Assembly: GCF_036528655.1 (NCBI RefSeq)
Contig: NZ_JAIGND010000006.1
Coordinates: 90,820 to 154,819 of the forward strand
Direction of reading: 5' to 3'
Origin: Chlorobium sp.
GTDB taxonomy: Bacteria > Bacteroidota > Chlorobiia > Chlorobiales > Chlorobiaceae
DNA: 64,000 nucleotides
The translations under genes were made by a program, and so were the position numbers. Positions 203 to 16,456 of this stretch are shown piece by piece (within the stretch, counting starts at the first letter, position 1; each line of letters begins with the position of its first letter). Below the pieces are notes generated by a model. That model was not told the DNA's origin. It did not search any database and worked only from the letters and a program-made list of their open reading frames with translations.

Positions 203-1477
203 TTATGGTTTGTGTTTTTCGTTTTTCGAATGTCCGGCAACCATCTGATCATAGATATGCTGTTCATTGGCACAGGAACAGACAATCATATGGCCCATCT
301 TGTCGCGCTTGGTTTCCAGATATGTTCTGTTGACTGCATTGGGAGCTATTTCAAGCGACACCCGCTCGACTATTTCAAGCCCGTAGCCCTCGAGTCCGAC
401 AATTTTTTTCGGATTGTTGGTAAGCAGCCTCATCTTATGAACGCCGAGATCCTGGAGAATCTGGGCACCGATGCCGTAATCGCGCAGATCGGCTTTAAAG
501 CCGAGCTTTTCGTTCGCCTCGACGGTATCGAACCCTTCATCCTGCAGATTGTATGCCTTGAGTTTGTTGATCAACCCGATACCGCGACCTTCCTGCATGA
601 GATAGACCAGTACTCCGCGCCCCTCCCTCTCGATCATGGAAAGCGCGGATGCGAGCTGGTTTCCGCAGTCGCAGCGAAGGGAAGCGAAGGTATCCCCGGT
701 GGCGCACTGGGAATGTACCCTCACGAGCACCGGTTCATCAGTCGAAACGTCGCCTTTTACAAAGGCGATGTGATTGTGACCGTCTATAAACGATTCGTAG
801 GCTATGAGACGGAACTCGCCGTGCACGGTAGGCAGCCTCGACTCGACCGCCCTGTGCACAAGCTTCCGGCGCTGCATCTGATAAGCAACAAGATCCTTGA
901 TGGTAATAAGCTTCAGGTTGAACTTCTCCTTGATCTTCATCAGTTCGGGAAGTCTGGCCATGCTGCCGTCCTCGTGCAGGATTTCGCAAAGCAGACCTGC
1001 CGGACTGCTGCCGGCAAGACGGGCAAGATCGACGGCCGCTTCGGTATGGCCCACCCGACGCAGTACCCCGCCATCCATTGCCCGAAGCGGAAAAATATGT
1101 CCCGGACGAGAAAAATCGTCAGCCTTGCAGGAGGGATCTCCAAGCATTTTTATGGTCATGGTTCGATCGTAGACGGAAATACCCGTGGTAACCCCCTCGG
1201 CGATCGCATCGACCGATACCGTAAAATTGGTTTCGTGCTGGGAGGTATTCCGCTGCACCATTGCGTCGAGCTGCAGCTCTTTTGCGCGATCCATTGTAAT
1301 GGCAACGCACAGCAGTCCCCTGGCCTCTCTGGTGATAAAATTCACCATTTCGGTGGTCACATGGTCGGCGGCAGCGATAAAATCGCCCTCATCTTCACGA
1401 TCTTCGTCATCAATCACGATGATCATCCGGCCCTGCCGGATATCCTCAATAGCCGATTCAATCGTATCGAATTTCAT
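203..1477 (-). CDS. ribBA: Bifunctional 3,4-dihydroxy-2-butanone-4-phosphate synthase / GTP cyclohydrolase II
   Basis: ORF 203..1549. I place the start at the internal Met (1477) because [33 protein letters not shown] is the typical DHBP synthase N-terminus. The C-terminal half carries GTP cyclohydrolase II motifs ([39 protein letters not shown]). Confidence 0.95.
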
Positions 1478-1771
1478 ATATGGTTTTCTTACATCGGTTA
1501 TAACGCGAAATACCCCGCTTCCGGAACAGCCTGCAGCGGAGAAAAACACTGTAATGTAAATAAAAATCCCGAACCGCTGACAGGGAAAGCCGCGGAGTGC
1601 ACGAAAAACAGCACCAGCCGGAACTCAGGCTGCCACCCCATAAAAAGATTTGCCCGGGACTTTGTCGAAGAACGGCTTTTTTTATCTTTTACACGGTTTT
1701 TTATCGACCGGTGAATTGCTTACCTTACACAACAATAATATTCAATAGCCTATACAATCCATCAGAACCGC

Positions 1772-3628
1772 ATGACGATACACGTTCCCGACCTGCCTGA
1801 AGAGGTTCGGATCCTCGAGGGCAAACTCCCCAAAGAAACGCTCATAAAAGCAAAAGGACATGGTTTTTCCGATTGTCAGCTTGCCAATATTTTCAGGACC
1901 TCGGAAAACGCAGTCAGGGAGCTGCGCAAAAAATACGGTGTAGAATCGGTATTCAAAACCGTGGATACCTGCGCAGCCGAGTTTGACGCGAAAACCCCCT
2001 ACCACTATTCCACCTACGACGAGGAAAATGAATCGGTCCGTTCCGATCGCAGGAAAGTTCTTATTCTCGGCGGCGGCCCGAACCGTATAGGCCAGGGTAT
2101 CGAGTTCGATTACTGCTGCGTACAGGCTGTTTTCGCTCTGCGCGAAGCGGGATATGAAACCATCATGGTGAACTGCAACCCCGAAACGGTTTCGACAGAT
2201 TACGATATTGCCGACAAACTCTACTTCGAACCGCTGACGTTCGAGGACACTATCCGCATCATCGAGCATGAACAACCTCTCGGAGTCATCGTCAGCTTCG
2301 GTGGACAGACCCCGCTCAAGCTTTCCACGAAACTCGATGAAGCCGGCGTGACGATTCTCGGCACTTCGTCGAAAGGAATCGATCTTGCAGAGGACCGCAA
2401 AAAATTCGGCTCTCTTCTCGAAAAACTCGAGATTCCCCATCCGGACTACGGCACCGCAATCAGTTTCGATGAAGCACAGGCAATTACCTCAAAAATAGGA
2501 TATCCGGTTCTGGTTCGTCCGAGTTATGTGCTTGGCGGCCGGGCGATGAAAATCATCTACAGCGACGACTCTCTGAAAGAATACGTCGATCAGGCACTCT
2601 TCATTTCGGAAAAATACCCGCTCCTTATCGACAGGTTCCTTGAAACAGCCGTCGAGTTCGACATCGATGCTCTTGCAGATACCACTGACTGTGTCATCAG
2701 CGGCATCATGCAGCATGTCGAAGCCGCAGGCATTCACAGCGGAGATTCAACATCGATCCTTCCCTATCGCAATATCAGCCCGGAAGTGATCGCAACCATG
2801 AAGGCCTATACCCGTACCCTTGCCGAACATCTCGGTGTGATTGGTCTTATGAATGTCCAGTATGCAGTTCAGAATGAAAGTGTCTACGTTATCGAGGTCA
2901 ATCCGAGAGCGAGCCGCACGGTGCCTTTCGTCGGCAAGGCCACGGCCGTTCCTGTTGTAAGGATAGCAACACGTATCATGCTCGGAGAGAAACTGTCGGA
3001 TCTGCGCGCCGAATATGACCTGAAGGACTGTGATGAACTCGGATTGAAGCACATGGCCATCAAGGAACCGGTTTTCCCGTTCTCGAAATTCGTTAAATCA
3101 GGGGTCTACCTCGGCCCTGAAATGCGCTCGACCGGCGAAGCCATGAGTCTTGCGGAGCAATTTCCCGAAGCTTTCGCAAAGGCTTACCAGGCTGCCAACA
3201 TGCACCTGCCGCTATCAGGAGCGGTGTTCATCAGCGTAAACGACCAGGACAAGGATCAGCGCATCATCGCAATTGCCAGGGAACTCTACCGCATGGACTT
3301 CGACCTTGTCGCTACCGCAGGAACCTACCAGTTCCTGACGAAGAACGGGATCGACTGCAAGAAGGTCTACAAAGTCGGCGAAGAAGGACGACCGAACATA
3401 TTCGACATCATCAAGCACGGCAAGATCGATTTCGTGATCAACACGCCACGAGGTGAGAAAGCGCTGCATGACGAGGAGGCTATAGGGGCGGCATCGGTGC
3501 AGAGCAACGTACCGTTCGTTACCACTATCGAAGCCGCAGCAGCATCGGTCGAGGCGATAGACTGCATCCGCCGCCAGGAATTCGGCGTAAAAAGCCTTCA
3601 GGAGTACTCCGCTTACCGGAAAAGGTAA
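1772..3628 (+). CDS. carB: Carbamoyl-phosphate synthase large subunit, C-terminal half only (split CarB: second ATP-grasp plus MGS-like allosteric domain)
   Basis: 618 aa. It begins in the oligomerisation-domain region (LIKAKGHGFSDCQLANIF). It then has VLILGGGPNRIGQGIEFDYCCV, the ATP-grasp region (IGYPVLVRPSYVLGGRAM, VYVIEVNPRASRTVPF) and the C-terminal MGS-like domain (AVFISVNDQDK...ATAGTYQFL...INTP). No N-terminal half lies upstream. Confidence 0.9.
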   Translation: MTIHVPDLPEEVRILEGKLPKETLIKAKGHGFSDCQLANIFRTSENAVRELRKKYGVESVFKTVDTCAAEFDAKTPYHYSTYDEENESVRSDRRKVLILGGGPNRIGQGIEFDYCCVQAVFALREAGYETIMVNCNPETVSTDYDIADKLYFEPLTFEDTIRIIEHEQPLGVIVSFGGQTPLKLSTKLDEAGVTILGTSSKGIDLAEDRKKFGSLLEKLEIPHPDYGTAISFDEAQAITSKIGYPVLVRPSYVLGGRAMKIIYSDDSLKEYVDQALFISEKYPLLIDRFLETAVEFDIDALADTTDCVISGIMQHVEAAGIHSGDSTSILPYRNISPEVIATMKAYTRTLAEHLGVIGLMNVQYAVQNESVYVIEVNPRASRTVPFVGKATAVPVVRIATRIMLGEKLSDLRAEYDLKDCDELGLKHMAIKEPVFPFSKFVKSGVYLGPEMRSTGEAMSLAEQFPEAFAKAYQAANMHLPLSGAVFISVNDQDKDQRIIAIARELYRMDFDLVATAGTYQFLTKNGIDCKKVYKVGEEGRPNIFDIIKHGKIDFVINTPRGEKALHDEEAIGAASVQSNVPFVTTIEAAAASVEAIDCIRRQEFGVKSLQEYSAYRKR

Positions 3629-3639
3629 GCGGAAGATAA

Positions 3640-3677
3640 CCGGGAGAAAAAGGCCGCTACCGGTATTTTTCTCCTGG
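3640..3677. terminator. Hairpin between convergent carB and lptE-like genes (candidate bidirectional terminator)
   Basis: CCGGGAGAAAAA (3640-3651) pairs with TTTTTCTCCTGG (3666-3677), giving 11 Watson-Crick pairs plus one G-U. A/T runs flank the stem on both strands. A second 7-bp hairpin, GCTTACC-GGAAAA-GGTAAGC (3611-3630), spans the carB stop codon. Confidence 0.6.
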
Positions 3678-3716
3678 TGCGTTCTCCACCGCAGCCACCC
3701 CTTTACCTGAATCGGA

Positions 3717-4238
3717 TTAACGCCAGTCGGAGACGACTGCGTCGAGTATATCGGCGGCAATCATGTCGAGCGACAGCGAGATCGCATCCTGCTGCGAAGA
3801 AAAACTTCCTGCCGTATAATCGGCAAACCCCGCGAATGTCCGCTCAAAAAGAATGCTTTTTTTAACACGATCCTGAAAAGTCGCCTGGACGGTAATGGTA
3901 ACGCGGTTGGTCAGAGCACGTTCGGTAGAGCTGCTGAGCTGGCTCGGTTCGTCACTGAACGAAAGAATGGTGCCTTCAAGAAGCGCATCGGCAGTAACGC
4001 GAGATGGCGTCAAACGAAGCGGGCTTTGCGATTCGAACTTTTCCGTCAGCTTTCTGGTAAGTTCAGCGCGAAAACGGGCAATACCGGCACGCGACTGATC
4101 CTGGAATACCGGCACCGCAACGGTTTTCATGTGTGGCGGAACCGATCCTCCGCTGAAACTGTAACATCCCTGAAACAGAAATGCCTGAATAAGCAGAACG
4201 AGGCAGATCGAAACACGTTTAAAACGGCCGTATCGCAT
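3717..4238 (-). CDS. lptE: LptE-like lipoprotein (LPS-assembly lipoprotein family)
   Basis: 173 aa with a signal peptide and lipobox (LFQGC). It continues [24 protein letters not shown], the pattern I associate with Bacteroidota/Chlorobiota LptE. It is the last gene of the co-directional RLP array. Confidence 0.6.
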
Positions 4239-4261
4239 GGATCACTCCGCTTGCTGAAAGG

Positions 4262-5086
4262 TTAACAGGTTCTCCGGTCTATCCGGTTGGTCAGTTTACG
4301 GAAGGGATAGGTAAAGAGCAACCTCTTTTTTGCCCACCCGTCAAGCGCGGAAAGGTATAATCCCGTTTTACCGTCACTCCAGCCTGAAGCCATCTTTACC
4401 GCAAGGGATGCTGCGATATCAGGCGGCTGGGCGAAGATATCGAGAATGGTGTTGAAGGTTGCAAGCTGCCGGGATAACTCCGGAGTCGGATTTTCGGCAC
4501 TTACCATGCCGGTGCGGACAAGACCCGGGTGCAGCAGCATTATTGATATCGGCGTCTGTCGATACTCCGCTGCGACAGCGTAGGTAAATCGTGCGATTGC
4601 CGCTTTCGTCGATCCGTATGCGCTGATGAACGGGGTATTCGAGCCCCGATCGGTACCGGAACCAGCCATATTGATGATCTTGCCGGGAACATTCTCACGG
4701 AGAAAATATGCTATAGCCGCACGGCACCCGTAACAGGTGCCTTTCAGGTTTGTATCGACGACCCTGCTCCACAGAACAGGATCACCTGCGCACAATGGAC
4801 CGAAGGGTTCTGATATACCCGCATTGTTAATGAAACAGTCGATCCTGCCGAATCTTTCTACCGATACTTCGACAAGACGCTCCATTTCGCAAAGAGAACT
4901 CACATCACAGGCGTGACCGTAGACGCGGTCCCGGCAAAGTCCCGCAAGAGCCGAATCTACATTCGATTGCGACGATGATGTTATGACCACCGAAGCCCCT
5001 TCATCGAGAAACCTGCAGGCGATAGCTCTGCCGATGCCCCGTGTCGATCCGGTAATGACCGCCACCTTGCCAGAAAGTTTTTCCAT
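4262..5086 (-). CDS. Short-chain dehydrogenase/reductase (SDR) family oxidoreductase
   Basis: 274 aa with the Rossmann motif VAVITGSTRGIGRAIA, NNAG, and the catalytic Y-x3-K in SAYGSTKAA. It lies 35 nt downstream of the RLP gene. Confidence 0.9.
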   Translation of the reverse strand: MEKLSGKVAVITGSTRGIGRAIACRFLDEGASVVITSSSQSNVDSALAGLCRDRVYGHACDVSSLCEMERLVEVSVERFGRIDCFINNAGISEPFGPLCAGDPVLWSRVVDTNLKGTCYGCRAAIAYFLRENVPGKIINMAGSGTDRGSNTPFISAYGSTKAAIARFTYAVAAEYRQTPISIMLLHPGLVRTGMVSAENPTPELSRQLATFNTILDIFAQPPDIAASLAVKMASGWSDGKTGLYLSALDGWAKKRLLFTYPFRKLTNRIDRRTC

Positions 5087-5121
5087 CGGCTGTTCAGTAA
5101 CTTGCGTTCGGTTCCGGCCAG

Positions 5122-6417
5122 CTATCTGCAGGCACCCTCAACCATCTGCTTCAGTTCGGGACGGCCTTCTGCGTAAGACTCAATCGATACTCCCTGCTCG
5201 ATCGCTTCCCATGCCTGACGGATGCTCCTCGCTCCGGCTTTCGGACCACCAGGATGGCCGAATACCCCGCGTCCAGGCACGAAACCGAAATCGACGCTGC
5301 CGACTTTCCGGTAGACCGTGTCGAGCGTCAATGCGGAATCGCTGCCGCCCGGCACGGGAAGCGAACGGCGGATATGGCCGAAATCCTGAAGGCACTCGCG
5401 GATATTGAGTATCACCTCCTCTTCCGGCGTCATCATCCTGTTTCCGAAACCCGGCATGATGACGGAGTCGAGACCGGCAAGACGCTGCAGTTTGGTCATG
5501 ACGCGGGAATGCACCCCGTACTTCTCCATACGACTGAAAGAGGCAATAAAGGGAAAATGACCGATAAGCGGCACTTTTGTATGTTTGGCAAGCATTCGCA
5601 CTCCACTCAGACCGACCGGCAGGGCATTGATGAGCAGCGCATTGGCCCCGTTACGCACTGCCATATCGTGCTGCTGTATAAGACGGTCCACCTCATCGGT
5701 CACGTTTGCAAGATAGATTTTAGGTACCCCGGTCTCCTTTTCGGCCTGCAACCGGGCCACTCCGAGTTCGCGCGAGCGCTCTTCAAGCGTAGACCACTCG
5801 ACATCGGCAAGCATCTCATCATCCTTTGCGATATCGAGACCTCCGAGCCAGCTCTCATAAGCGATATCGGCGAAACATGAGGGCTTCAAACCGATATTGG
5901 GCTTCACCACCCCGAAAAAGATCGGACGATCATATGCCTGCAGAAGATCGCGTATCCCTTCGATACCGAATCTCGGTCCCTCGAACGCATTCAGATAAGG
6001 CTCGGGAAATCCGATATCAAGCAGCTTTACCACGGGGACTCCAGGGGTAAAGAACGTACCCTCCCCGCATACGGCCGTGATAAGATTGGGCAGCTTCGGA
6101 CCGAAATTACGGTACGGATGCGCAATGGTAACCCGGCATGCATGAACCGGACCGGCTTCGGCGTGTTTGACCGGATAACTGAGTCCGGGCAATTCTCCCT
6201 CGACAGTAAGGCCGATAACCTTAGCGCCATAGAGCGGTCTGAAATCTTCATCGAACCCGACTCGTCTCCACTGTGCCGTAGACTGCTCGCTGCAGAAATG
6301 GGCAAGCGCCATCTCGATATCGCCGACACACTCCAGATAGTATTCGAGCGTGAGATAGTCTGCCATATCGAGCTGTTCGGGTGAAGCGAAAAAGCCCTTG
6401 ATGTCCTCAGTATTCAT
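5122..6417 (-). CDS. RuBisCO-like protein (form IV RLP, Chlorobaculum tepidum type)
   Basis: 431 aa. It is colinear with my recollection of the C. tepidum RLP (MN.ED.KGFFAS..., [56 protein letters not shown]). It retains [10 protein letters not shown] (carbamyl-Lys motif) but is not a form I/II enzyme. Confidence 0.95.
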
Positions 6418-6524
6418 AAAATAAACAAAACGTTATTCTCACGACCCCGGATATATGCAAGCCACCAGCCAGGGATCCTGTTTTGAAATGCAATTATTGA
6501 TGAAAAGCCGATTATATCCGGATC

Positions 6525-7406
6525 TCAGCCTTCTGACCGGATGCTCTGAAAATACTCGTAAGCCTCGGCAGGCGCCATATTCTCGTGCACCACACGGTTC
6601 ACCGTCTTCATCATGGCCAGAGGTGCGTCGCTCTGGAAGATGTTGCGGCCCATGTCCACACCGGCAGCACCTTCCTGTATCGCCCGATACGACATGGTCA
6701 GTGCATCGAGTTCGGAAATTTTCTTGCCTCCCGCCATCACGATCGGTACCGGACAGGATGCCACGACCGTTTCGAAATCTTCCGGAACATAGTAGGTTTT
6801 CACGATCTGGGCTCCGAGTTCGGCCGATATACGGCAGGCAAGCCGGAAATATTTTGCATCACGCACCATGTCCTTGCCGACGGCGGTAACCGCCATGGTA
6901 GGAATGCCGTAACGCAGTCCCATGTCGACGAGCTTCGTCATGTTGCGGATAGACCGGGTTTCGAACTCTCCGCCGATGAAAACCTGGAGGGTAATAGCCG
7001 CAACGTTCATCCTGATGGCATCCTCGATATCTACGGCAAGCTGCTCGTCGGAGAGTTCCTTGAGTATGCTCGGACCGCCGCTGCAGCGCATGACAACCGC
7101 CTTTGTAAGCGAAGGAGGCACCGTGGTGCGCAGAATACCCCTGGTGAGCATAATGGCATCGGCATGAGGCATGAGCGGCACAATATTGACGTCGGGACGC
7201 TCAAGACCGGTGGTCGGACCCTGAAAATAGCCATGATCGATAGCGAACATGACGGTCCTGCCGGTATCGGGCCTGAAAATGCGCGAAAGACGGTTTTTCA
7301 TGCCCCAGTCGAGCGAATGCGCTCCTTTCAGAAAGAACCCATATTTCTCGACAGGAATATCGGTATAGTACTCTTTGGCCTGTTTATCCTTGTCATATTC
7401 AGCCAT
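6525..7406 (-). CDS. Class I (DeoC/LacD-fold) aldolase of the LsrF type (3-hydroxy-5-phosphonooxypentane-2,4-dione thiolase-like)
   Basis: 293 aa. Long motif runs match E. coli LsrF as I recall it: [52 protein letters not shown] (Schiff-base Lys context), [22 protein letters not shown]. Confidence 0.85.
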
Positions 7407-7467
7407 GATGGTGTCTCCGGTTTCAGTTTTGATTCAGGTTAACGTCTTGTAATTCGATCAATTCAGC

Positions 7468-9585
7468 TTAACGAAGCGCGGCAGCGATATTGCCGCCGTC
7501 AACCGTGACGATAGAGCCGGTCGTCTTCGTTTCGAGTGCCTGGTGCACAAAGGCCTCTGCAACATCCTCGGCTGTAACCTCAACCTGCAGAAGATTGCCG
7601 GCCATATACTCCCGTTCACTGAGCCCCCGCGCCCTGGAACGGGTTTTTATCATTTCATCGGTCAGAAGTCCTGTACGAATGCGGTCAGCATTGATACCGT
7701 TCGCCCTGATACCGTCGCGTCCGTGATCGAGCGCGTACTGGCGAACAAGAAACATGGTTGCTGCTTTCGGCAGGCCGTAAGGACCGAAATCAGGCCCCGG
7801 ATTTACCGCCTGCTTCGAAACGTTGAAAAGCAGAACCCCTCCCGTTTCCTGCAGACGCATGATCCTGACCGCCTCCTGGGCAATGGACTGGTGCGAAAAA
7901 AAGTTGAGTTCGAAGCTCCGGCGAAGCACATCGTCGGCCACATCGCCGATCCTGCCCTGAAGAGCCACACCGACATTCGACACAACGATATCGACACCTC
8001 CGAACCGGCGACAGACCGAATCGAAGGCGCTTCGCACAGCCTTGCGGTCAGTCACGTCGCAGGCTACGGCAAGCACGCCTTCGCCTATCTCTCTGGCCGC
8101 AAGCTCCAGCGCATCGGGGTTCAGGTCGAGAACCACCAGCTCGGCACCCCGCTGCCTGAATGCCCTGGCAGTGGCCAGTCCGATGCCGCTCGCCGCACCG
8201 GTTACCAGAGCGACCTTTCCGGCAAACACATCGTGACGGATCTTTTTCATCTTGGCCTGCTCCATCTCCCAATATTCGATATCGAAAGCATCTCGCTCGC
8301 TTATGGACTCGAACCGTCCTACCGATTCGGCGTCCAGAATGGCCGATGCGGTACTTGCAGCAATATCGGCATTGACCGCAGCCGCACTGGCAGTCCGGCC
8401 AAGCCCGAAAAGCCCGAGACCCGGAACAAGCACCACCCTCGGCAGAGGATCGAGCATCGTAACCTGCATGCCGGAAGCCTCTTTCTGGCGCTCGAAATAA
8501 GCCCTGTACTCCTCCTTATACCCTTCAACAGCAGCACGGACAACGTTCCTGAACCCCTCGATGTCAGCTGCGTCGGGTGCGGGGACTGCAAGCGGACGAT
8601 TCTTTGTACGGATGATGAAATCGGGCGTCATGGCGCCTCTTCCGCTCACTTCCGCAAGATCAGGCCTGTTCACGTAATCCAGAATATCCGGGGATGAGCG
8701 AAAATCCAGCACGAACTGATCGTACTGCCTGCAGCCCGGACTTCTCTCCTCGGCGACCGCCCCCCTGATTACCGGAGCGACTTCTTCAAGTGAAGCAACG
8801 ACCGGGGGAAGCGGAACTGCCTCATACTGCTTTCTCCCCGACCGGGCTATACGCTCTTCAAGCTTTGTGACGCTTTCTATCATGAACCCGTAGGCCTCGG
8901 CCGCAGAATCGGCAAAGGTGACCAGACCGTGCTTGTGCAGCACCAGACCCCTGATCGCGGAATCGTGCCCGTAAGCTTCGGCGGCAGAATGCGCAAGTCC
9001 GAGACCCGGTTTGATATAGGGAACCATGCCGAACAGATCCCCAAGGGTTTCCCGGCAAAGCGCTTCCCCATCCGGCTGGTTGCTGAGCGTCAGAAGGGCC
9101 GTTGCATGCGTATGAAAAATAAACCTGTGCGGCAGAAAAGCGTGAAGCATGGTCTCGATCGAAGGTGAAAGCGAGTTTTTCACCATGTGATCGGTCAGAT
9201 AGAAGAGATTCAGATAGAGGAAGTTTTTGAACTCCCTTGTCGAGAACTGCTGTATATCGTCGTCGCTATGCCGCTTGCCTGTCGCGTAGAGATGCTGGAG
9301 TTTCCGGAGCGGATCTATGCGGACAGGCGTAAAATCGTGAGCATCGAGAGCGGCAAGATCAACTCCGCTGCCCTTGATGAAAATGACATTCACACTGTTA
9401 CCGATTATGTCGCGCAACTCGCTCTTTACCGAGGTATTGCCGCCGCCGTGCATCACCAGAGAACTTTCGCTCCCGAGCAGGCGGGAGGCATAAACCAGTT
9501 CCGCAAGTTCTGCAGGAATATCGTTATCGCTGAGCTGACGGTCTACGGAGCGCTGAAAATCGGCACTGTTCCAGAGATTTTGCAT
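7468..9585 (-). CDS. Bifunctional class II aldolase (rhamnulose-1-phosphate aldolase-like) / short-chain dehydrogenase
   Basis: 705 aa. The N-terminal ~430 aa is a class II aldolase/adducin-type domain (SLVMHGGGNTS, HTHATALL). The C-terminal ~250 aa is an SDR (VALVTGAASGIGLATA, Y-x3-K in PYGLPKAA). The architecture matches the RhaD-ADH fusion family. Confidence 0.85.
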   Translation of the reverse strand: MQNLWNSADFQRSVDRQLSDNDIPAELAELVYASRLLGSESSLVMHGGGNTSVKSELRDIIGNSVNVIFIKGSGVDLAALDAHDFTPVRIDPLRKLQHLYATGKRHSDDDIQQFSTREFKNFLYLNLFYLTDHMVKNSLSPSIETMLHAFLPHRFIFHTHATALLTLSNQPDGEALCRETLGDLFGMVPYIKPGLGLAHSAAEAYGHDSAIRGLVLHKHGLVTFADSAAEAYGFMIESVTKLEERIARSGRKQYEAVPLPPVVASLEEVAPVIRGAVAEERSPGCRQYDQFVLDFRSSPDILDYVNRPDLAEVSGRGAMTPDFIIRTKNRPLAVPAPDAADIEGFRNVVRAAVEGYKEEYRAYFERQKEASGMQVTMLDPLPRVVLVPGLGLFGLGRTASAAAVNADIAASTASAILDAESVGRFESISERDAFDIEYWEMEQAKMKKIRHDVFAGKVALVTGAASGIGLATARAFRQRGAELVVLDLNPDALELAAREIGEGVLAVACDVTDRKAVRSAFDSVCRRFGGVDIVVSNVGVALQGRIGDVADDVLRRSFELNFFSHQSIAQEAVRIMRLQETGGVLLFNVSKQAVNPGPDFGPYGLPKAATMFLVRQYALDHGRDGIRANGINADRIRTGLLTDEMIKTRSRARGLSEREYMAGNLLQVEVTAEDVAEAFVHQALETKTTGSIVTVDGGNIAAALR

Positions 9586-9642
9586 GAGTAACTGCTGCTT
9601 CTTTATTACCGGTTGCCGGCTGGTTAAATTAGATCTGCTGTA

Positions 9643-9858
9643 TCACGTATTCGATTTTTTCTTCTTATGCCACCCTTCAATGAAAAAACCTGACAGGTAA
9701 ATGACTATGAATCCGGGAATAACGACCGCGAGATAGGTCATCCGGTCGCTGAGGGTCTGCAGTTGCCCGGATGACCAGATCATCCACGCAAGCATGAACC
9801 AGAAAGGTCCTACGAAAAGAAACGTAACGTTCCAGAGGGTAGTGAAAGTGTACTTCAT
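9643..9858 (-). CDS. Small hypothetical membrane protein (two predicted TM helices, Lys-rich tail)
   Basis: 71-aa ORF 44 nt downstream of bchF on the same strand. It has two hydrophobic stretches (TLWNVTFLFVGPFWFMLAWMIW and YLAVVIPGFIVIYLSGFFI) and ends KKKKSNT. I recognise no family. Confidence 0.4.
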   Translation of the reverse strand: MKYTFTTLWNVTFLFVGPFWFMLAWMIWSSGQLQTLSDRMTYLAVVIPGFIVIYLSGFFIEGWHKKKKSNT

Positions 9859-9902
9859 AGGTCGTCTGCCTTATCAATCGGATTATGTTGAAACCGAAAA
9901 AC

Positions 9903-10376
9903 TCAGATATTTCCTTCGAGTCTGAGTTTCCGTTCGTTGTGTTTTTCAAGAATGATGCGCACCAGATACTGAAGCGCGTTGATCACATAGGTGAAATACG
10001 CAAGAAAAGCCTCCCAGATCAGGACATCCTCGGGATAGCCAAGGTAAGCCAGCACAAAATAGAGCAGATGAAATCCCGCCGCTATCGTACTTCCGATATC
10101 CTCCCAGAGGAACTCTTTCGAATAGACCCATTTATCGAAAATCTCCTTTTCGAAAAACATGCCGGTAATGAACAGCAACGCAAAAAAAAGGGTTTTAAAA
10201 AGAATGGCTACGCTGACCCAGTAAAAGTCTGTAACAAAGAGTCCGTTTGCGTAAAGCGCAGTAATGGCCACGCCGGATACGAAAATCAGAAACTGGATGG
10301 GGGCGAGAATGATCTGTATATCGGTCCAGATCGATGCATTTCGTTTAGCAAGCTGTTCGGGAGTATAACGAGGCAT
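9903..10376 (-). CDS. bchF: 2-vinyl bacteriochlorophyllide hydratase (BchF/BchV family)
   Basis: The ORF track gives 239 aa. The conserved protein starts at the internal Met (10376): [32 protein letters not shown]..., which is the BchF family N-terminus. About 158 aa with 3-4 TM helices. It could be the BchV paralog, judging by its neighbourhood to the RLP and a bchQ-like gene. Confidence 0.85.
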
Positions 10377-10684
10377 AAAAACAGTTTCTCTTCGGGTGAA
10401 AAAAATTCGCGCCCGTAATCGAAAACAATCAGGACGCATCAAAACTTGAAGCATGGAATATACTAAAATGAAAGAGAGAGAAAAAGCGGGGTCTCTCCTG
10501 TAAACAATCTTCGAATTCCCGACGTATTTCGGCGGCAGAGGCCAAATGTGTACAGAGAGCGCCTTTTTTTTCCGGAAAATTGACCTATCTTTACAGGCTG
10601 AGCTGAAACAGGAATCCTTCATACATCAATTTGTTATTACCGGGTTCCATCGGAGTTTTATTCAACTTTTGTTCGTTTCTCCGG

Positions 10685-12091
10685 ATGTACATGCTGAAAC
10701 CAGAAGAGACAAGATCTCTGAAAATCCTGCTTGTTTCGCCACAGGGCAAAATGGATGACGACAGCAACCAGAAACCCCTGTTTCACATGGCTCTCGGGGT
10801 TCTTGTCAGTCTGACACCGGCTCAGCATCAAATCGAACTGGTCGACGAGCATTTTCACGATCCGATCAGGTATGACGGCGATTACGATCTTGTCGGCATC
10901 ACATCCCGGACGCTTGAAGCCACCCGGGCATATGAAATCGCCGATACCTTCAGGGCGCATGGAAAAACAGTCGTCCTCGGTGGACTTCATATCTCCTTCA
11001 ATCCCGAAGAAGCCGCAAAACATGCCGACAGCATCGTCATTGGAGAAGCAGACAATCTCTGGACAACGGTGCTCGACGATGTGGCCGCAGGAAGTCTGAA
11101 ACCGGTATACAACTCGAAAGATTTTCCGCCGGTCAAAGAAATCACCCCGATCGACTATGCGCGTATAGCGAAAGTATCCAGACGGGGAAAGGTTGACGGC
11201 ACGAAATCCATTCCCATCTATCTCACTCGCGGCTGCCCTTTCAACTGTTCGTTCTGCGTAACACCGAACTTCACGGGAAAACAATATCGCTCACAGAAGC
11301 CGGAACTGCTCAAGCAGCAGGTAGACGCCGCAAAAAAATATTTCTTCAAGGAAAACGGCCGTTCATCGAAACCCTGGTTCATGCTGACCGATGAAAATCT
11401 CGGCATCAACAAAAAAAAGCTCTGGGAATCGCTCGATCTGCTCAAGGAGTGCAATATTACATTCAGTGTTTTTCTGAGCGTGAACTTCCTTGAAGACCCT
11501 GAAACCGTCAAAAAGCTCGTGGACGCCGGCTGCAATTTTGTGCTTGCAGGTCTTGAATCCATCAAGCAGAGCACCCTCGAAGCATACAACAAGGGGCATG
11601 TAAACTCCGCGGAAAAATACTCGAAAATCATCGAGGATTGCCGGAAAGCCGGCCTGAACATTCAGGGGAACTTCCTGTTCAACCCGGCAATCGACACCTT
11701 CGAGGATATTGACGAACTCGTACAATTCGTCACGAAAAACCATCTTTTCATGCCGATTTTCCAGATCATCACTCCCTATCCTGGAACACAGATGTACTGG
11801 GATTATAAAAACAAGGGTCTGATAACCGACGAAGACTGGGAAAAATACAACGCCCTGCATCTGGTCATAAAATCCGAGCGTTACGATCCCCTGCTCTTTC
11901 AGTACAAGGTACTCAAGAGCTATACCGACATATACTCATGGCGGCATATCTTCGCCAGAACCTGGTACAACCCGAGAAAGCTCATCAACCTGGTTACGAG
12001 CCTCGCTTTCCGCAACCATCTGCGCAACCAGCTCGACGAATTCGAGCGTCATCACGGGCTCAACCCGAAAGTGCTGGAAGGCGTCAGATAA
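10685..12091 (+). CDS. bchQ: Class B (B12-binding) radical SAM enzyme, probable bacteriochlorophyllide c C-8(2)/C-12(1) methyltransferase (BchQ/BchR family)
   Basis: N-terminal B12-binding domain (KILLVSPQG..., [19 protein letters not shown]). Radical SAM CxxxCxxC motif in [13 protein letters not shown]. It is divergent from the bchF/V gene. The start is ATG 10685 or 10691 (the track ORF begins at 10631). The bchQ assignment rests on my recollection of synteny with C. tepidum, not on a specific motif. Confidence 0.6.
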
Positions 12092-14447: not shown

Positions 14448-16250
14448 TCATTTTCTCCGGGCACATGCCCGATAGAGGCGATAGAATGCGACCACTGCGC
14501 GACGTATGTCTCGATCGGCTGCGAGTGCAAGAACCTGACAGGGTTTAACGGAAGAATTGTAGCGCATAAGCTCTTTTCTGTACAGAAAACGCATAACAAC
14601 CTCCGCCGACACAGATACCGTAGCCTCGACAGCCGCCCTGATGTTCACAACCGGCCCGACACCCGGGACACTTCCGGAAACCTCCCGGATAGTGAGCGCC
14701 CGCCGATCGGCCTCCTGGGTCATGCGAAACTCGATACACCGGCCACCACTCTCTTCGAGAAAAACAGAAACCGGCTCTTTCAGCCTCCTTCCGGAGGGAT
14801 AGTCGATGCGGGGTTCCGTACTCGCGAAACGTTCGTACGCTTCATAGATCGTCGACTCAATCTCCTGTGTGGTCAGACTCCGGTTAACAAGTGTCAGAAA
14901 AACGAACTGACAGAAATCCCTCAGGAATATCCGCAGTATCCCCCTCTCGCTCTCCTCCTGCATCATGGTTCGGTAATTGAAGAAAGCTACATAGCAGTAT
15001 AGCATCATCGTCATCAATCGGGCATTACTCATTCCCTCGGTCTTCACCACCGGACAGAAGTTGTTATAGAGGTCCCAGTTGAAAGAGGTAATATTGTCCT
15101 GACTGCGGTACTCCTCATAAATATTCGTACCTGGATAGGGCGTCATTGCCATGAACAGCGCATTCCTGAGGCTGAGTGCCCGGGCAAAACCCGGATAAAC
15201 CATCGTATCGGCTTCGGTCTCGCTGTGGTGCCCGACAATGAAATAGCCTTCGACGCCGATATCGTGTTTTCCAAGCAGTTCTATAGCCCTGGAAATATCG
15301 TCGAGAGTATTCTGCTTGTTCATCAACTCGAGAGTTGCAGGGTTCGGACTCTCGATACCGAGTCCTACCTTTCTCAGTCCGACCTTATGCAACTTGCCGA
15401 GAATACGTTCAGACCTGATCACATCCCTGGCACGGGTCTCGGTGACAATCCTGAAATTGGTCAACCCCTGCTCGATCATGAGGTCGCAAATCCGCTCGAC
15501 CCGTTTGATGTTGGTCAGAAAGTTGGCGTCCCAGATTTTCAGCAGCTTTTTCTTCTTCGGATCGTGAATCAGGGCAATCTCCTCAACCACATTCTCCGCA
15601 CTCCGGCCACGCCACTGTTTGTGCATCCTGTCATTGGCGCAGAACGAACACTTCCAGGGGCAGCCACGCGAAGTGTATATTGTCTCGATAGTATAGTCAT
15701 GACTCTTCTCTCCGAACCGCTCGGGCCGGATCGAGCGGAGCGGAAAGCGGATCGAATCCACATCCCTGATCAACTCCCGAATTCCGGTATGGACAAATGT
15801 GCCGTTCTCTTTCCAGCAGAGCCCTTTCACGTCGCGCGACGGCCCTTTCTCGACCAGTTCCCGGAAGGTTGCCTCCCCCTCGCCGATCACCACCAGATCA
15901 GCAAATCCATGATCGAGCGCTTCCTCGGGCATCGCCGTCGGATGAAAGCCGCCCATCACCACCGTGACGCCGTATTTTCTGGCAATCCGCGAAAGCTTCA
16001 CCGCGTTGTTGAAGCCGCCGGTCATCGAGGAGATGGCCGCAAGATCGAACGGCCGCTCCTGCAGCAGCCGCTCGAAACTGTCGAAAATCCCTTCGTTGTA
16101 ATAGTTATCGGGCATCGCCATGCTTTCGGCGATATCCTCCACAGCGCTGGCGAGATAGCAGACGCCGATACAGTCGCTGATGAATCGGGGAAACGGCGTC
16201 ACAATCGCCTGCGGAGCCTCGACGAAGCAGATGTTCCTGTAATACGCCAT
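14448..16250 (-). CDS. Class B (B12-binding) radical SAM protein of unknown function with a ~170-aa C-terminal extension
   Basis: Start at Met-51 of the track ORF (MAYYRNICFVEAP...). B12-binding domain (DLAAISSMTGGF, VVMGGFHPT). Radical SAM motif YTSRGCPWKCSFC. It has a long C-terminal tail beyond the core, and it differs from the bchQ-like protein. Confidence 0.8.
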   Translation of the reverse strand: MAYYRNICFVEAPQAIVTPFPRFISDCIGVCYLASAVEDIAESMAMPDNYYNEGIFDSFERLLQERPFDLAAISSMTGGFNNAVKLSRIARKYGVTVVMGGFHPTAMPEEALDHGFADLVVIGEGEATFRELVEKGPSRDVKGLCWKENGTFVHTGIRELIRDVDSIRFPLRSIRPERFGEKSHDYTIETIYTSRGCPWKCSFCANDRMHKQWRGRSAENVVEEIALIHDPKKKKLLKIWDANFLTNIKRVERICDLMIEQGLTNFRIVTETRARDVIRSERILGKLHKVGLRKVGLGIESPNPATLELMNKQNTLDDISRAIELLGKHDIGVEGYFIVGHHSETEADTMVYPGFARALSLRNALFMAMTPYPGTNIYEEYRSQDNITSFNWDLYNNFCPVVKTEGMSNARLMTMMLYCYVAFFNYRTMMQEESERGILRIFLRDFCQFVFLTLVNRSLTTQEIESTIYEAYERFASTEPRIDYPSGRRLKEPVSVFLEESGGRCIEFRMTQEADRRALTIREVSGSVPGVGPVVNIRAAVEATVSVSAEVVMRFLYRKELMRYNSSVKPCQVLALAADRDIRRAVVAFYRLYRACARRK

Positions 16251-16456
16251 AGCCAGGTTTGGATTAAGATCAGGAAGGTGATGGAAGGAAATGCTAAGTT
16301 CCCCGGACTGGCGGATCCATCGTATACAGGTAAAATATACGCGATTCATATGACAAAAGAAGCTATCCCGGCACAATACCCCTTCATTGTGAAACATCAA
16401 GGGTTCGATGTCGCCTTGAACGGTATATCAAAACCCTTGCTTTGGCTCAGTAACTG

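Follow-up and report, generated by a model that had tools for sequence, protein, structure and literature searches.

What reaction does the RuBisCO-like protein (RLP) of green sulfur bacteria catalyze, and do the genes beside it take part? RLPs are central to ideas on RuBisCO evolution, and the reaction of the green sulfur bacterial protein has been an open question since 2001, despite crystal structures and knockouts. The question was taken up here with a 64,000-nt stretch of a Chlorobium genome (contig NZ_JAIGND010000006.1, positions 90,820 to 154,819; hereafter the window), in which the RLP gene belongs to a block of five genes, all on the minus strand, running from 9585 to 3717: a fusion of a class II aldolase with a short-chain dehydrogenase/reductase (SDR), denoted AldSDR; an LsrF-type thiolase homologue; the RLP; a further SDR, denoted SDR2; and an LptE-like lipoprotein. 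The gaps between them measure 61, 107, 35, and 23 nt in the list of open reading frames (ORFs), and these values and the gene coordinates agreed exactly with the initial annotation, a short description of this DNA made from its letters alone. The RLP was 100% identical to a C. limicola protein, and the block is the Chlorobium limicola copy of a long-known, Chlorobiaceae-wide RLP locus. Judged by sequence, this locus joins two enzyme modules that are found apart in other lineages. In the reading that we prefer, to which we give a probability of about 40%, the RLP would isomerize a C5 ketose monophosphate by enolization, and its neighbors would cleave the ketose-1-phosphate to dihydroxyacetone phosphate (DHAP) and a C2 unit.

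The proposed order of events is as follows. Module A would comprise the AldSDR fusion and the LsrF-type thiolase, and module B the RLP, of the clade called IV-Photo, and a lineage-specific SDR. Via its carbamyl-lysine/Mg2+ site, the RLP would enolize a singly phosphorylated C5 ketose and shift the carbonyl along the chain, interconverting pentulose-5-phosphate and pentulose-1-phosphate. The ketose-1-phosphate, with its DHAP-like head group, would then be split into DHAP and a C2 unit, for which two routes are conceivable. In one, the class II aldolase domain would free an aldehyde for the fused SDR to oxidize or reduce; in the other, an SDR would oxidize the sugar to a beta-diketone phosphate, from which the LsrF-type enzyme, with CoA, would release an acyl-CoA. 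Hydrophobic residues at the former distal phosphate site would favor a non-phosphorylated tail, possibly a deoxy one. The LptE gene, along with a BchV-type hydratase gene and a 71-aa ORF upstream of the block, would be syntenic passengers.

The RLP carries the RuBisCO catalytic domain (PF00016, 162 bits, residues 151-427). Against solved structures it scored highest with the RLPs of Chlorobaculum tepidum (1TEL/1YKW; 758 bits, 77% identity, gap-free) and Rhodopseudomonas palustris (RLP2, 2QYG; 658 bits, 67% identity); every other solved RuBisCO or RLP chain reached at most 173 bits, and the protein was thus assigned to the IV-Photo clade. A neighbor-joining tree agreed, which completes a placement among the form IV clades that the initial annotation had left to be made. 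In that tree all Chlorobiaceae RLPs formed one clade, with the window RLP inside it; its sister was a clade whose genes are linked to YjbQ, and the sister of these two together was a clade linked to RpiB. Both associations are described below.

Active-site positions were mapped via alignments to form III RuBisCOs. Equivalents of K175, the carbamylated K201, D203, E204, H294, N123, and E60 were retained (kept residues in the RLP's own numbering include K172, K198, D200, E201, and H287), and the carbamyl-lysine context quoted in the initial annotation lies at residues 192-201. Six positions were replaced (K177 by N, R295 by F, H298 by I, H327 by I, S379 by G, and G404 by R), the equivalent of K334 was variable, and the residue next to it was an invariant R. 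All 96 Chlorobiaceae sequences carry the six replacements, which were also fully or almost fully invariant in the YjbQ-linked and RpiB-linked clades. Because the RuBisCO active-site equivalents were identical or nearly so over 241 sequences in the three clades, the same reaction class, and probably the same type of substrate, is to be expected in all of them. In RuBisCO, R295, H298, and H327 bind the distal (C5) phosphate; hydrophobic residues at this site therefore suggest a substrate that has a single phosphate and whose distal end is small or non-polar. The C. tepidum orthologue is reportedly without ribulose bisphosphate carboxylase activity.

Three assignments of the RLP to known enzymes were tried and rejected on family-model scores: MtnW (TIGR03332, 151 bits against a cutoff of 513.6; NF007095, 188 against 409), the OiaX decarboxylase (NF042437, 207 bits against 700), and form III RuBisCO (TIGR03326, 211 bits against 497). 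As the initial annotation had held, the searchable literature yielded no assigned reaction for the IV-Photo clade, and a 2024 genome paper still describes the role of the green sulfur bacterial RLP as not elucidated. Nothing in the full-text literature linked RLP with LsrF, YjbQ, or the CT177x locus tags; the cluster or the YjbQ pairing may already have been described. In vitro, R. palustris RLP2 slowly converts methylthioribulose-1-phosphate to methylthioxylulose-5-phosphate, as cited in PMC5893883.

The neighbors of the RLP were characterized with Pfam, NCBIfam, and solved structures, the Pfam search being confined to the window and, among its 60 non-overlapping ORFs, to the 52 largest. The LsrF homologue aligned with Escherichia coli LsrF (PDB 3GKF/4P2V) at 60% identity over 288 residues with no gaps (388 bits) and passed the NCBIfam equivalog model for the thiolase acting on 3-hydroxy-2,4-pentanedione 5-phosphate (P-HPD; NF006081, 512 bits against a cutoff of 297). 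Its Schiff-base lysine (E. coli K203) was kept, GAQIVKTYY aligning with GAQIIKTYY. The initial annotation had called this 293-aa protein LsrF-like and had quoted the first of these motifs; identity, equivalog score, and lysine context all argue for that prediction.

In AldSDR, the domains Aldolase_II (residues 29-237) and adh_short (457-642) were recognized, the N-terminal aldolase part extending over about 445 aa, and the motifs TGAASGIG and YGLPK were found in keeping with the aldolase-SDR fusion first described. The protein exceeded the cutoff of the 'bifunctional aldolase/SDR' model (NF006193, 1380 bits against 1213) and fell below those of the RhaD_aldol-ADH models (TIGR02632, 458 against 567.75; NF006189, 426 against 634). 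Its N-domain could be aligned to PDB 3M4R, and the motifs for metal binding and catalysis (PSIET, HTH, and KHG) were conserved. SDR2, also recognized from the start as a second SDR after the RLP, carries TGSTRGIG and YGSTK; it matched adh_short at 143 bits and no NCBIfam model above cutoff, and its best solved relatives were generic (e.g., glucose 1-dehydrogenase, 106 bits). It lies directly after the RLP in every Chlorobiaceae locus and is absent beside the RLP outside this family.

How widely the block is kept was determined by a scan of one genome per species, which returned 383 RLP relatives; the best 80, all from Chlorobiaceae, were examined. The order AldSDR, LsrF-like, RLP, SDR2, LptE was kept in each of the 65 loci complete for the five genes, and the remaining 15 of the 80, which end at contig edges, were consistent as far as the sequence reaches. 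A metagenome scan added 80 loci: those with an RLP at least 76% identical to that of the window had the Chlorobiaceae arrangement, in the same order as far as each contig extends, and at 69% identity or less the arrangement was absent. Conservation of the four-enzyme neighborhood across Chlorobiaceae, a point raised in the initial annotation, was universal in the loci examined, and the five-gene arrangement is more than chance. Identities to the window proteins in the Chlorobiaceae loci were 76-96% for RLP, 66-97% for AldSDR, 61-96% for SDR2, and 48-93% for LptE; the LsrF homologue was the most conserved of the block at 82-99%. Median gaps were 55 nt between AldSDR and the LsrF-like gene, 33 nt between RLP and SDR2, and about 8 nt between SDR2 and LptE. 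The flanks were less stable: of 61 informative loci, 51 had the hydratase gene upstream, and the most frequent downstream ORF was shared by 39 of 58. The 71-aa ORF was found by tblastn at the same position in 58 of the 80 loci (56-93% identity).

The dTDP-L-rhamnose genes rmlA, rmlC, and rmlD follow LptE in 19-25 of 58 other Chlorobiaceae loci (e.g., L014, 11005-12051; L038, 12025-12759; L009, 12989-13888); in the window a carbamoyl-phosphate-synthase-like gene occupies their position. These genes, and the RhaD_aldol-ADH domain architecture that the fusion shares, could be taken to indicate catabolism or recycling of a 6-deoxyhexose such as L-rhamnose, in which AldSDR would act as RhaEW, that is, as rhamnulose-1-phosphate aldolase and lactaldehyde dehydrogenase. 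However, the fusion scores under the TIGR02632 cutoff, the rml genes are biosynthetic and absent from the window, no rhamnose isomerase, rhamnulokinase, or transporter gene was found in the window, and the RLP and the thiolase would be left without a role. We find this scarcely credible.

The main rival to the proposed pathway is that the genes are neighbors only: the RLP would serve in a YjbQ-associated process, would have landed beside the LsrF/AldSDR module in an ancestor of Chlorobiaceae, and the order would have been inherited vertically since. We regard this as doubtful, and yet a series of observations weighs on its side or against a shared pathway. The initial annotation had named a neighborhood confined to close relatives as grounds for refuting the pathway; among the RLP loci examined outside Chlorobiaceae, the four-enzyme neighborhood was kept in 0 of 34. 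In 29 of the 32 informative loci (two were uninformative because of contig ends), the gene directly upstream of the RLP was instead a YjbQ/UPF0047 gene of about 142 aa, usually separated by 3-9 nt and matching TIGR00149 ('secondary thiamine-phosphate synthase'). Six IV-Photo RLPs, including those of Thiorhodococcus drewsii, Chloroherpeton thalassium, and Ectothiorhodospira sp. PHS-1, were each preceded by a YjbQ gene on the same strand; Chloroherpeton, a green sulfur bacterium outside Chlorobiaceae, thus has YjbQ-RLP and not the four-enzyme block. No IV-Photo locus of the YjbQ type outside Chlorobiaceae had an aldolase, LsrF-like, or SDR neighbor. Since the Chlorobiaceae RLPs form one clade, their arrangement represents a single evolutionary event. 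The widest and most variable gap of the block is also the junction of LsrF-like gene and RLP (median 110 nt, range 21-470). LptE lies downstream of SDR2 in all complete Chlorobiaceae loci; the original view of LptE as a passenger is reasonable, and its synteny nonetheless equals that of the enzymes, so that synteny within Chlorobiaceae argues only weakly for shared function. The window ORFs scanned included no gene for a kinase, phosphorylase, isomerase, or transporter that might supply the substrate. Finally, a promoter scan gave zero promoter-like sites and 8 terminator-like sites against 7.8 expected; these matches are not above chance and carry no information on operon structure.

The YjbQ-RLP pairing may offer a first functional context for YjbQ. 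In purple sulfur bacteria (L081 and eight other loci), the pair comes after the puf reaction-centre operon and before genes for a NUDIX protein and lipoyl synthase. In one YjbQ-type locus (L086, on a contig shared with L132), the opposite strand carries, about 0.9 kb downstream of the RLP, genes for an IF-2B/MtnA-family isomerase (10215-11333, minus strand) and a HAD hydrolase; the IF-2B gene was the sole hint of a methylthioribose-type isomerase near any RLP examined.

Module A, for its part, was found without an RLP, again in favor of adjacency alone. Proteins 79-82% identical to the Chlorobium LsrF homologue occur in metagenome-assembled genomes of Phycisphaerae, Planctomycetes, and Actinobacteria (P0218, P0221, P0225, P0227). 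Three such contexts were examined: an LsrF-like gene with ribulose-phosphate 3-epimerase and SDR genes; the same three with a long class II aldolase; and Lactamase_B, LsrF-like, SDR, and a 395-aa class II aldolase. RLP was absent from all three, an SDR was present in all three, and an aldolase in two. The stand-alone aldolases resemble the N-domain of the fusion, and NCBIfam places them on 'bifunctional aldolase/SDR' models. The accompanying SDRs were closer to the C-domain of the fusion (31-36% identity, 100-117 bits) than to SDR2 (26-28%, 53-59 bits), and SDR2 was rejected as their orthologue. These RLP-free contexts, with their fusion-like SDR and aldolase, indicate that AldSDR and the LsrF-like thiolase constitute a recurrent module of their own. 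Across phyla the partner SDR and aldolase were only 25-36% identical, as against 79-82% for the LsrF-like protein; the similarity of the latter reflects either extreme constraint on the thiolase or horizontal transfer. A Lactamase_B gene occurs both beside an LsrF-like gene (L089) and in RLP loci of the RpiB type (L172, L173); at 25-26% identity, a shared orthologue was rejected.

The LsrF homologue also invites an explanation modeled on the Lsr system, which we consider very unlikely. Diketones of the phospho-4,5-dihydroxy-2,3-pentanedione (P-DPD) type would arise, spontaneously or enzymatically, from pentose phosphates or 1-deoxyxylulose-5-phosphate; the RLP would replace LsrG in converting P-DPD to P-HPD, and the LsrF homologue would carry out thiolysis. 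The equivalog score and 60% identity to E. coli LsrF speak for it, and RLPs are known to enolize 2,3-diketone phosphates, as in the MtnW enolase. Nevertheless, neither the scanned window ORFs nor the three contexts from other phyla included lsrK, lsrG, or lsrACDB, the AldSDR fusion would have no role, and other IV-Photo carriers have no LsrF-like neighbor. The LsrF-like modules of other phyla, moreover, carry ribulose-phosphate 3-epimerase and SDR and no analogue of LsrG.

Independent support for linking the RLP to its neighbors came from the RpiB-linked sister clade. In one metagenome locus (L167), an RLP 59% identical to that of the window is followed by an RpiB-family isomerase gene and a convergent gene for a 702-aa AldSDR, whose N-domain was 38% identical to that of the window protein and whose SDR domain was 54% identical to an actinobacterial LsrF-adjacent SDR. 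Searching with the L167 RLP uncovered a large clade, to which Desulfobacterales, Anaerolineae, and the Olavius delta-1 symbiont contribute members. Its RLPs were 57-65% identical and share the active-site residues, and in several cases RpiB and RLP are fused in one protein of 608-614 aa. In L173/L174, one operon combines the RpiB and RLP genes with those for an ABC transporter, a phosphomutase, an FGGY kinase, and a class II aldolase; this aldolase best matched the N-domain of bifunctional aldolase/SDR models. The RpiB-clade loci examined were sugar-utilization regions, with GntR or SorC regulators and a lactonase-like metallo-hydrolase as further members. A clade with the same active site near AldSDR-type aldolases thus provides an independent link of the RLP family to sugar-phosphate and aldolase chemistry.

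RpiB enzymes convert aldose phosphates to ketose-omega-phosphates, and class II aldolases of the FucA/RhaD type act, as does LsrF, on ketose-1-phosphates with a DHAP-like head group. To our knowledge, the only enzyme type that interconverts ketose-omega-phosphates and ketose-1-phosphates is itself an RLP, the 5-methylthioribulose-1-phosphate 1,3-isomerase of Rhodospirillum rubrum. Taking these substrate types together, isomerization of a pentulose monophosphate is the most economical hypothesis. By analogy, RLP, LsrF-type, and aldolase-SDR enzymes all have precedents on ketose-1-phosphates that give DHAP.

The RpiB-linked clade, with its independent co-localization of RLP and AldSDR-type aldolases, therefore also stands against the view that the Chlorobiaceae genes are only adjacent. 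So does the retention of the block in 65 of 65 loci though both flanks have been rearranged, and so does the fact that neither the window nor the 8 kb around any of the 80 Chlorobiaceae genome loci contains a YjbQ gene. For the single four-enzyme ketose-phosphate pathway put forward in the initial annotation, the outcome was mixed: the chemistry and the independent RLP-aldolase associations lent it support, while the lineage-restricted synteny, the YjbQ pairing, and the RLP-free LsrF modules counted against it.

The initial annotation had further derived the substrate from by-products of S-adenosylmethionine (SAM), with the four enzymes processing 5-deoxy- or 5-methylthio-ribulose-1-phosphate that originates from 5'-deoxyadenosine and 5'-methylthioadenosine (MTA). 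Two routes can be drawn: 5-deoxyribulose-1-phosphate would be oxidized to P-HPD, which the thiolase would cleave to DHAP and acetyl-CoA, or it would be isomerized to 1-deoxyxylulose-5-phosphate. The first has the attraction that oxidation at C4 should, on chemical grounds, yield exactly the known substrate of LsrF. The predicted hydrophobic distal pocket of the RLP would suit such a compound, two B12-binding radical-SAM genes lie within 7 kb, an IF-2B (MtnA-family) gene lies 0.9 kb from the RLP in the one non-Chlorobi locus noted above, and the DHAP shunt offers a precedent for class II aldolase with dehydrogenase (PMC6079011). Against this, none of mtnP, mtnN, mtnK, mtnA, drdK, or drdI, nor another such kinase or isomerase gene, was present among the window ORFs scanned, so that the search suggested by the initial annotation came back empty to that extent, and the RpiB sister clade resides in operons for sugar uptake, not nucleoside salvage. 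An origin in MTA was contradicted by R. palustris, in which deletion of the Photo RLP2 left growth on MTA and methanethiol release unaffected and the protein has negligible activity and a negligible role (PMC5893883). A source in SAM by-products is, overall, unlikely.

Returning to the isomerization that we prefer, a wider version of it can be formulated: the whole IV-Photo-type RLP family, in all three clades, would be a pentulose-phosphate 1,3-isomerase that moves the carbonyl between 5-phosphate and 1-phosphate forms. In Chlorobiaceae it would feed a previously undescribed CoA-dependent cleavage, in which an SDR would form a beta-diketone phosphate for the LsrF-type thiolase to split into DHAP and acetyl- or glycolyl-CoA. 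We hold this to be decidedly unlikely. If true, however, 1,3-isomerization plus thiolysis would constitute a thiolytic alternative to the aldolase-based DHAP shunt, and could serve, for example, 5-deoxyribose from the radical-SAM enzymes of bacteriochlorophyll synthesis; the reverse direction would provide an entry to 1-deoxyxylulose-5-phosphate independent of its usual synthase, DXS; and the UPF0047/YjbQ family would gain its first physiological context. One active site in three contexts (the Chlorobiaceae block; YjbQ, among other phototrophs and their relatives; and RpiB, in part as fusions) narrows the substrates to a short, testable list, and the three contexts together point to a singly phosphorylated pentulose and a DHAP-yielding cleavage. 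Confirmation would bring a new RLP reaction, a role for LsrF-type thiolases outside quorum sensing, and a function for YjbQ; should the modules prove unrelated, a misleading guilt-by-association argument would be removed.

The surroundings of the block in the window, with reference loci from other genomes, are collected in Table 1. The cluster is located among bacteriochlorophyll c genes (a BchF/BchV-type hydratase and two B12/radical-SAM genes), and the co-directional run exceeds the five genes, as the hydratase gene and the 71-aa ORF lie upstream on the same strand. The hydratase ORF matched Pfam BCHF at 183 bits (residues 86-224 of 239); its homologues span about 66% of the ORF, and the true start is probably internal to it. 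The LptE-like protein (PF04390, 57 bits) has an N-terminal signal peptide and the lipobox LFQGC. Near the start of the window, two long ORFs overlap on opposite strands, at 212-1714 (plus, 500 aa) and 203-1549 (minus, 448 aa); the former is without a Pfam match, yet it is conserved at 46-79% downstream of the carB-like gene in the closest relatives. No riboswitch or other RNA element was found with Rfam, either in the whole window at gathering thresholds or in 3300-10800 at E ≤ 1.

Table 1. Location of the RLP block, its flanking genes, and comparison loci. Positions in the upper part are those of the window; those in the YjbQ and RpiB rows are those of the named locus.
Feature	Location	Strand	Basis or remark
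Bifunctional class II aldolase/SDR fusion (AldSDR), 705 aa	7468-9585	-	Pfam, NCBIfam
LsrF-type class I aldolase-fold, CoA-dependent thiolase homologue, 293 aa	6525-7406	-	DeoC family; NF006081
RLP, form IV, IV-Photo clade, 431 aa	5122-6417	-	RuBisCO_large
Classical SDR oxidoreductase (SDR2), 274 aa	4262-5086	-	Pfam adh_short
LptE-like outer-membrane lipoprotein, 173 aa	3717-4238	-	Pfam LptE
71-aa ORF, two predicted transmembrane helices	9643-9858	-	Read from sequence; conserved
BchF/BchV-type 3-vinyl bacteriochlorophyllide hydratase, 239-aa ORF	9903-10622	-	Pfam BCHF
B12-binding radical-SAM gene, BchQ/BchR-like, divergent	10631-12091	+	Bounds run upstream
Second B12-binding radical-SAM gene, BchQ/BchR-like	14448-16400	-	
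Carbamoyl-phosphate-synthase-like gene, convergent	1772-3628		Bounds run downstream
YjbQ gene, L081	7569-7997		
YjbQ gene, L082	7569-7994		
YjbQ gene, L083	7568-7996		
YjbQ gene, L084	7567-7995		
YjbQ gene, L085	7567-7992		
YjbQ genes, 24 more loci	in L086-L169		
RpiB-linked example, L172	9001-10827		
RpiB-linked example, L173	8324-10111		
RpiB-linked example, L167	321-2116		
RpiB-linked examples P0331, P0333, P0341, P0348, P0349, P0350			

The layout of the block bears on a published mutant of this locus. The C. tepidum RLP mutant of Hanson and Tabita, from 2001, is said to have a phenotype in sulfur metabolism and oxidative stress. In the window, RLP, SDR2, and LptE follow one another with no terminator-like site between them (3717-5121). 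Given these small gaps and the lack of such a site downstream of the RLP, the omega-cassette mutant of C. tepidum could be polar on SDR2 and LptE, and polarity on an SDR and a lipopolysaccharide-assembly gene may contribute to the pleiotropic stress phenotype.

Several characterized systems resemble parts of the block. RhaEW has the same two-domain architecture as AldSDR and overlapping family models; the window protein, however, falls under the equivalog cutoff, belongs to subfamily NF006193, and has a gene context unrelated to rhamnose utilization. In the MtnB-MtnW-MtnX set of Bacillus, too, an enzyme of the class II aldolase family (the MtnB dehydratase) works with an RLP, the enolase MtnW, and with a small enzyme encoded downstream, but the window RLP scores far below the MtnW models, the window aldolase domain lies in the bifunctional-fusion branch, and no other mtn genes accompany them. 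The Lsr system of E. coli (LsrK, LsrG, LsrF) shares an LsrF homologue alike over its full length, catalytic lysine included, whereas in the window the neighbors are the RLP and AldSDR, with none of LsrK, LsrG, or LsrACDB among the ORFs scanned.

Closer in overall chemistry is the DHAP shunt, or 5-deoxyribose salvage (MtnP or MtnK/DrdK, MtnA/DrdI, Ald2/DrdA, and an alcohol dehydrogenase). Both systems have a class II aldolase and a dehydrogenase, and by analogy a ketose-1-phosphate substrate and DHAP as product would be expected in both. They differ in that the scanned window ORFs included no phosphorylase, kinase, or isomerase gene, in that the window aldolase is of the long RhaD-ADH type, of about 445 aa, and in that the thiolase and RLP of the window cluster have no part in the shunt. 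The DeepYkr RLP of R. rubrum and R. palustris, which acts in the MTA-isoprenoid shunt, belongs to the same RuBisCO superfamily, and Mg-dependent enolization of a ketose-1-phosphate would, by analogy, be common to both; in each case a small partner gene adjoins the RLP, and traces of the methylthioribulose-1-phosphate isomerization are seen in vitro with R. palustris Photo RLP2, as cited in PMC5893883. DeepYkr is nevertheless another clade (the window RLP reached only 100 bits against the RLP-like chain 3QFW), its partner is a cupin methylsulfurylase and not YjbQ, an SDR, or RpiB, and R. palustris genetics places the Photo RLP outside MTA metabolism (PMC5893883). The nearest counterpart by far is the RLP locus of Chlorobaculum (Chlorobium) tepidum itself: the RLPs align without gaps at 77% identity, the gene order recurs in two loci of the Chlorobaculum type, L061 and L080 (both truncated by contig ends), and the window, as the C. 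limicola copy, differs from it only in species.

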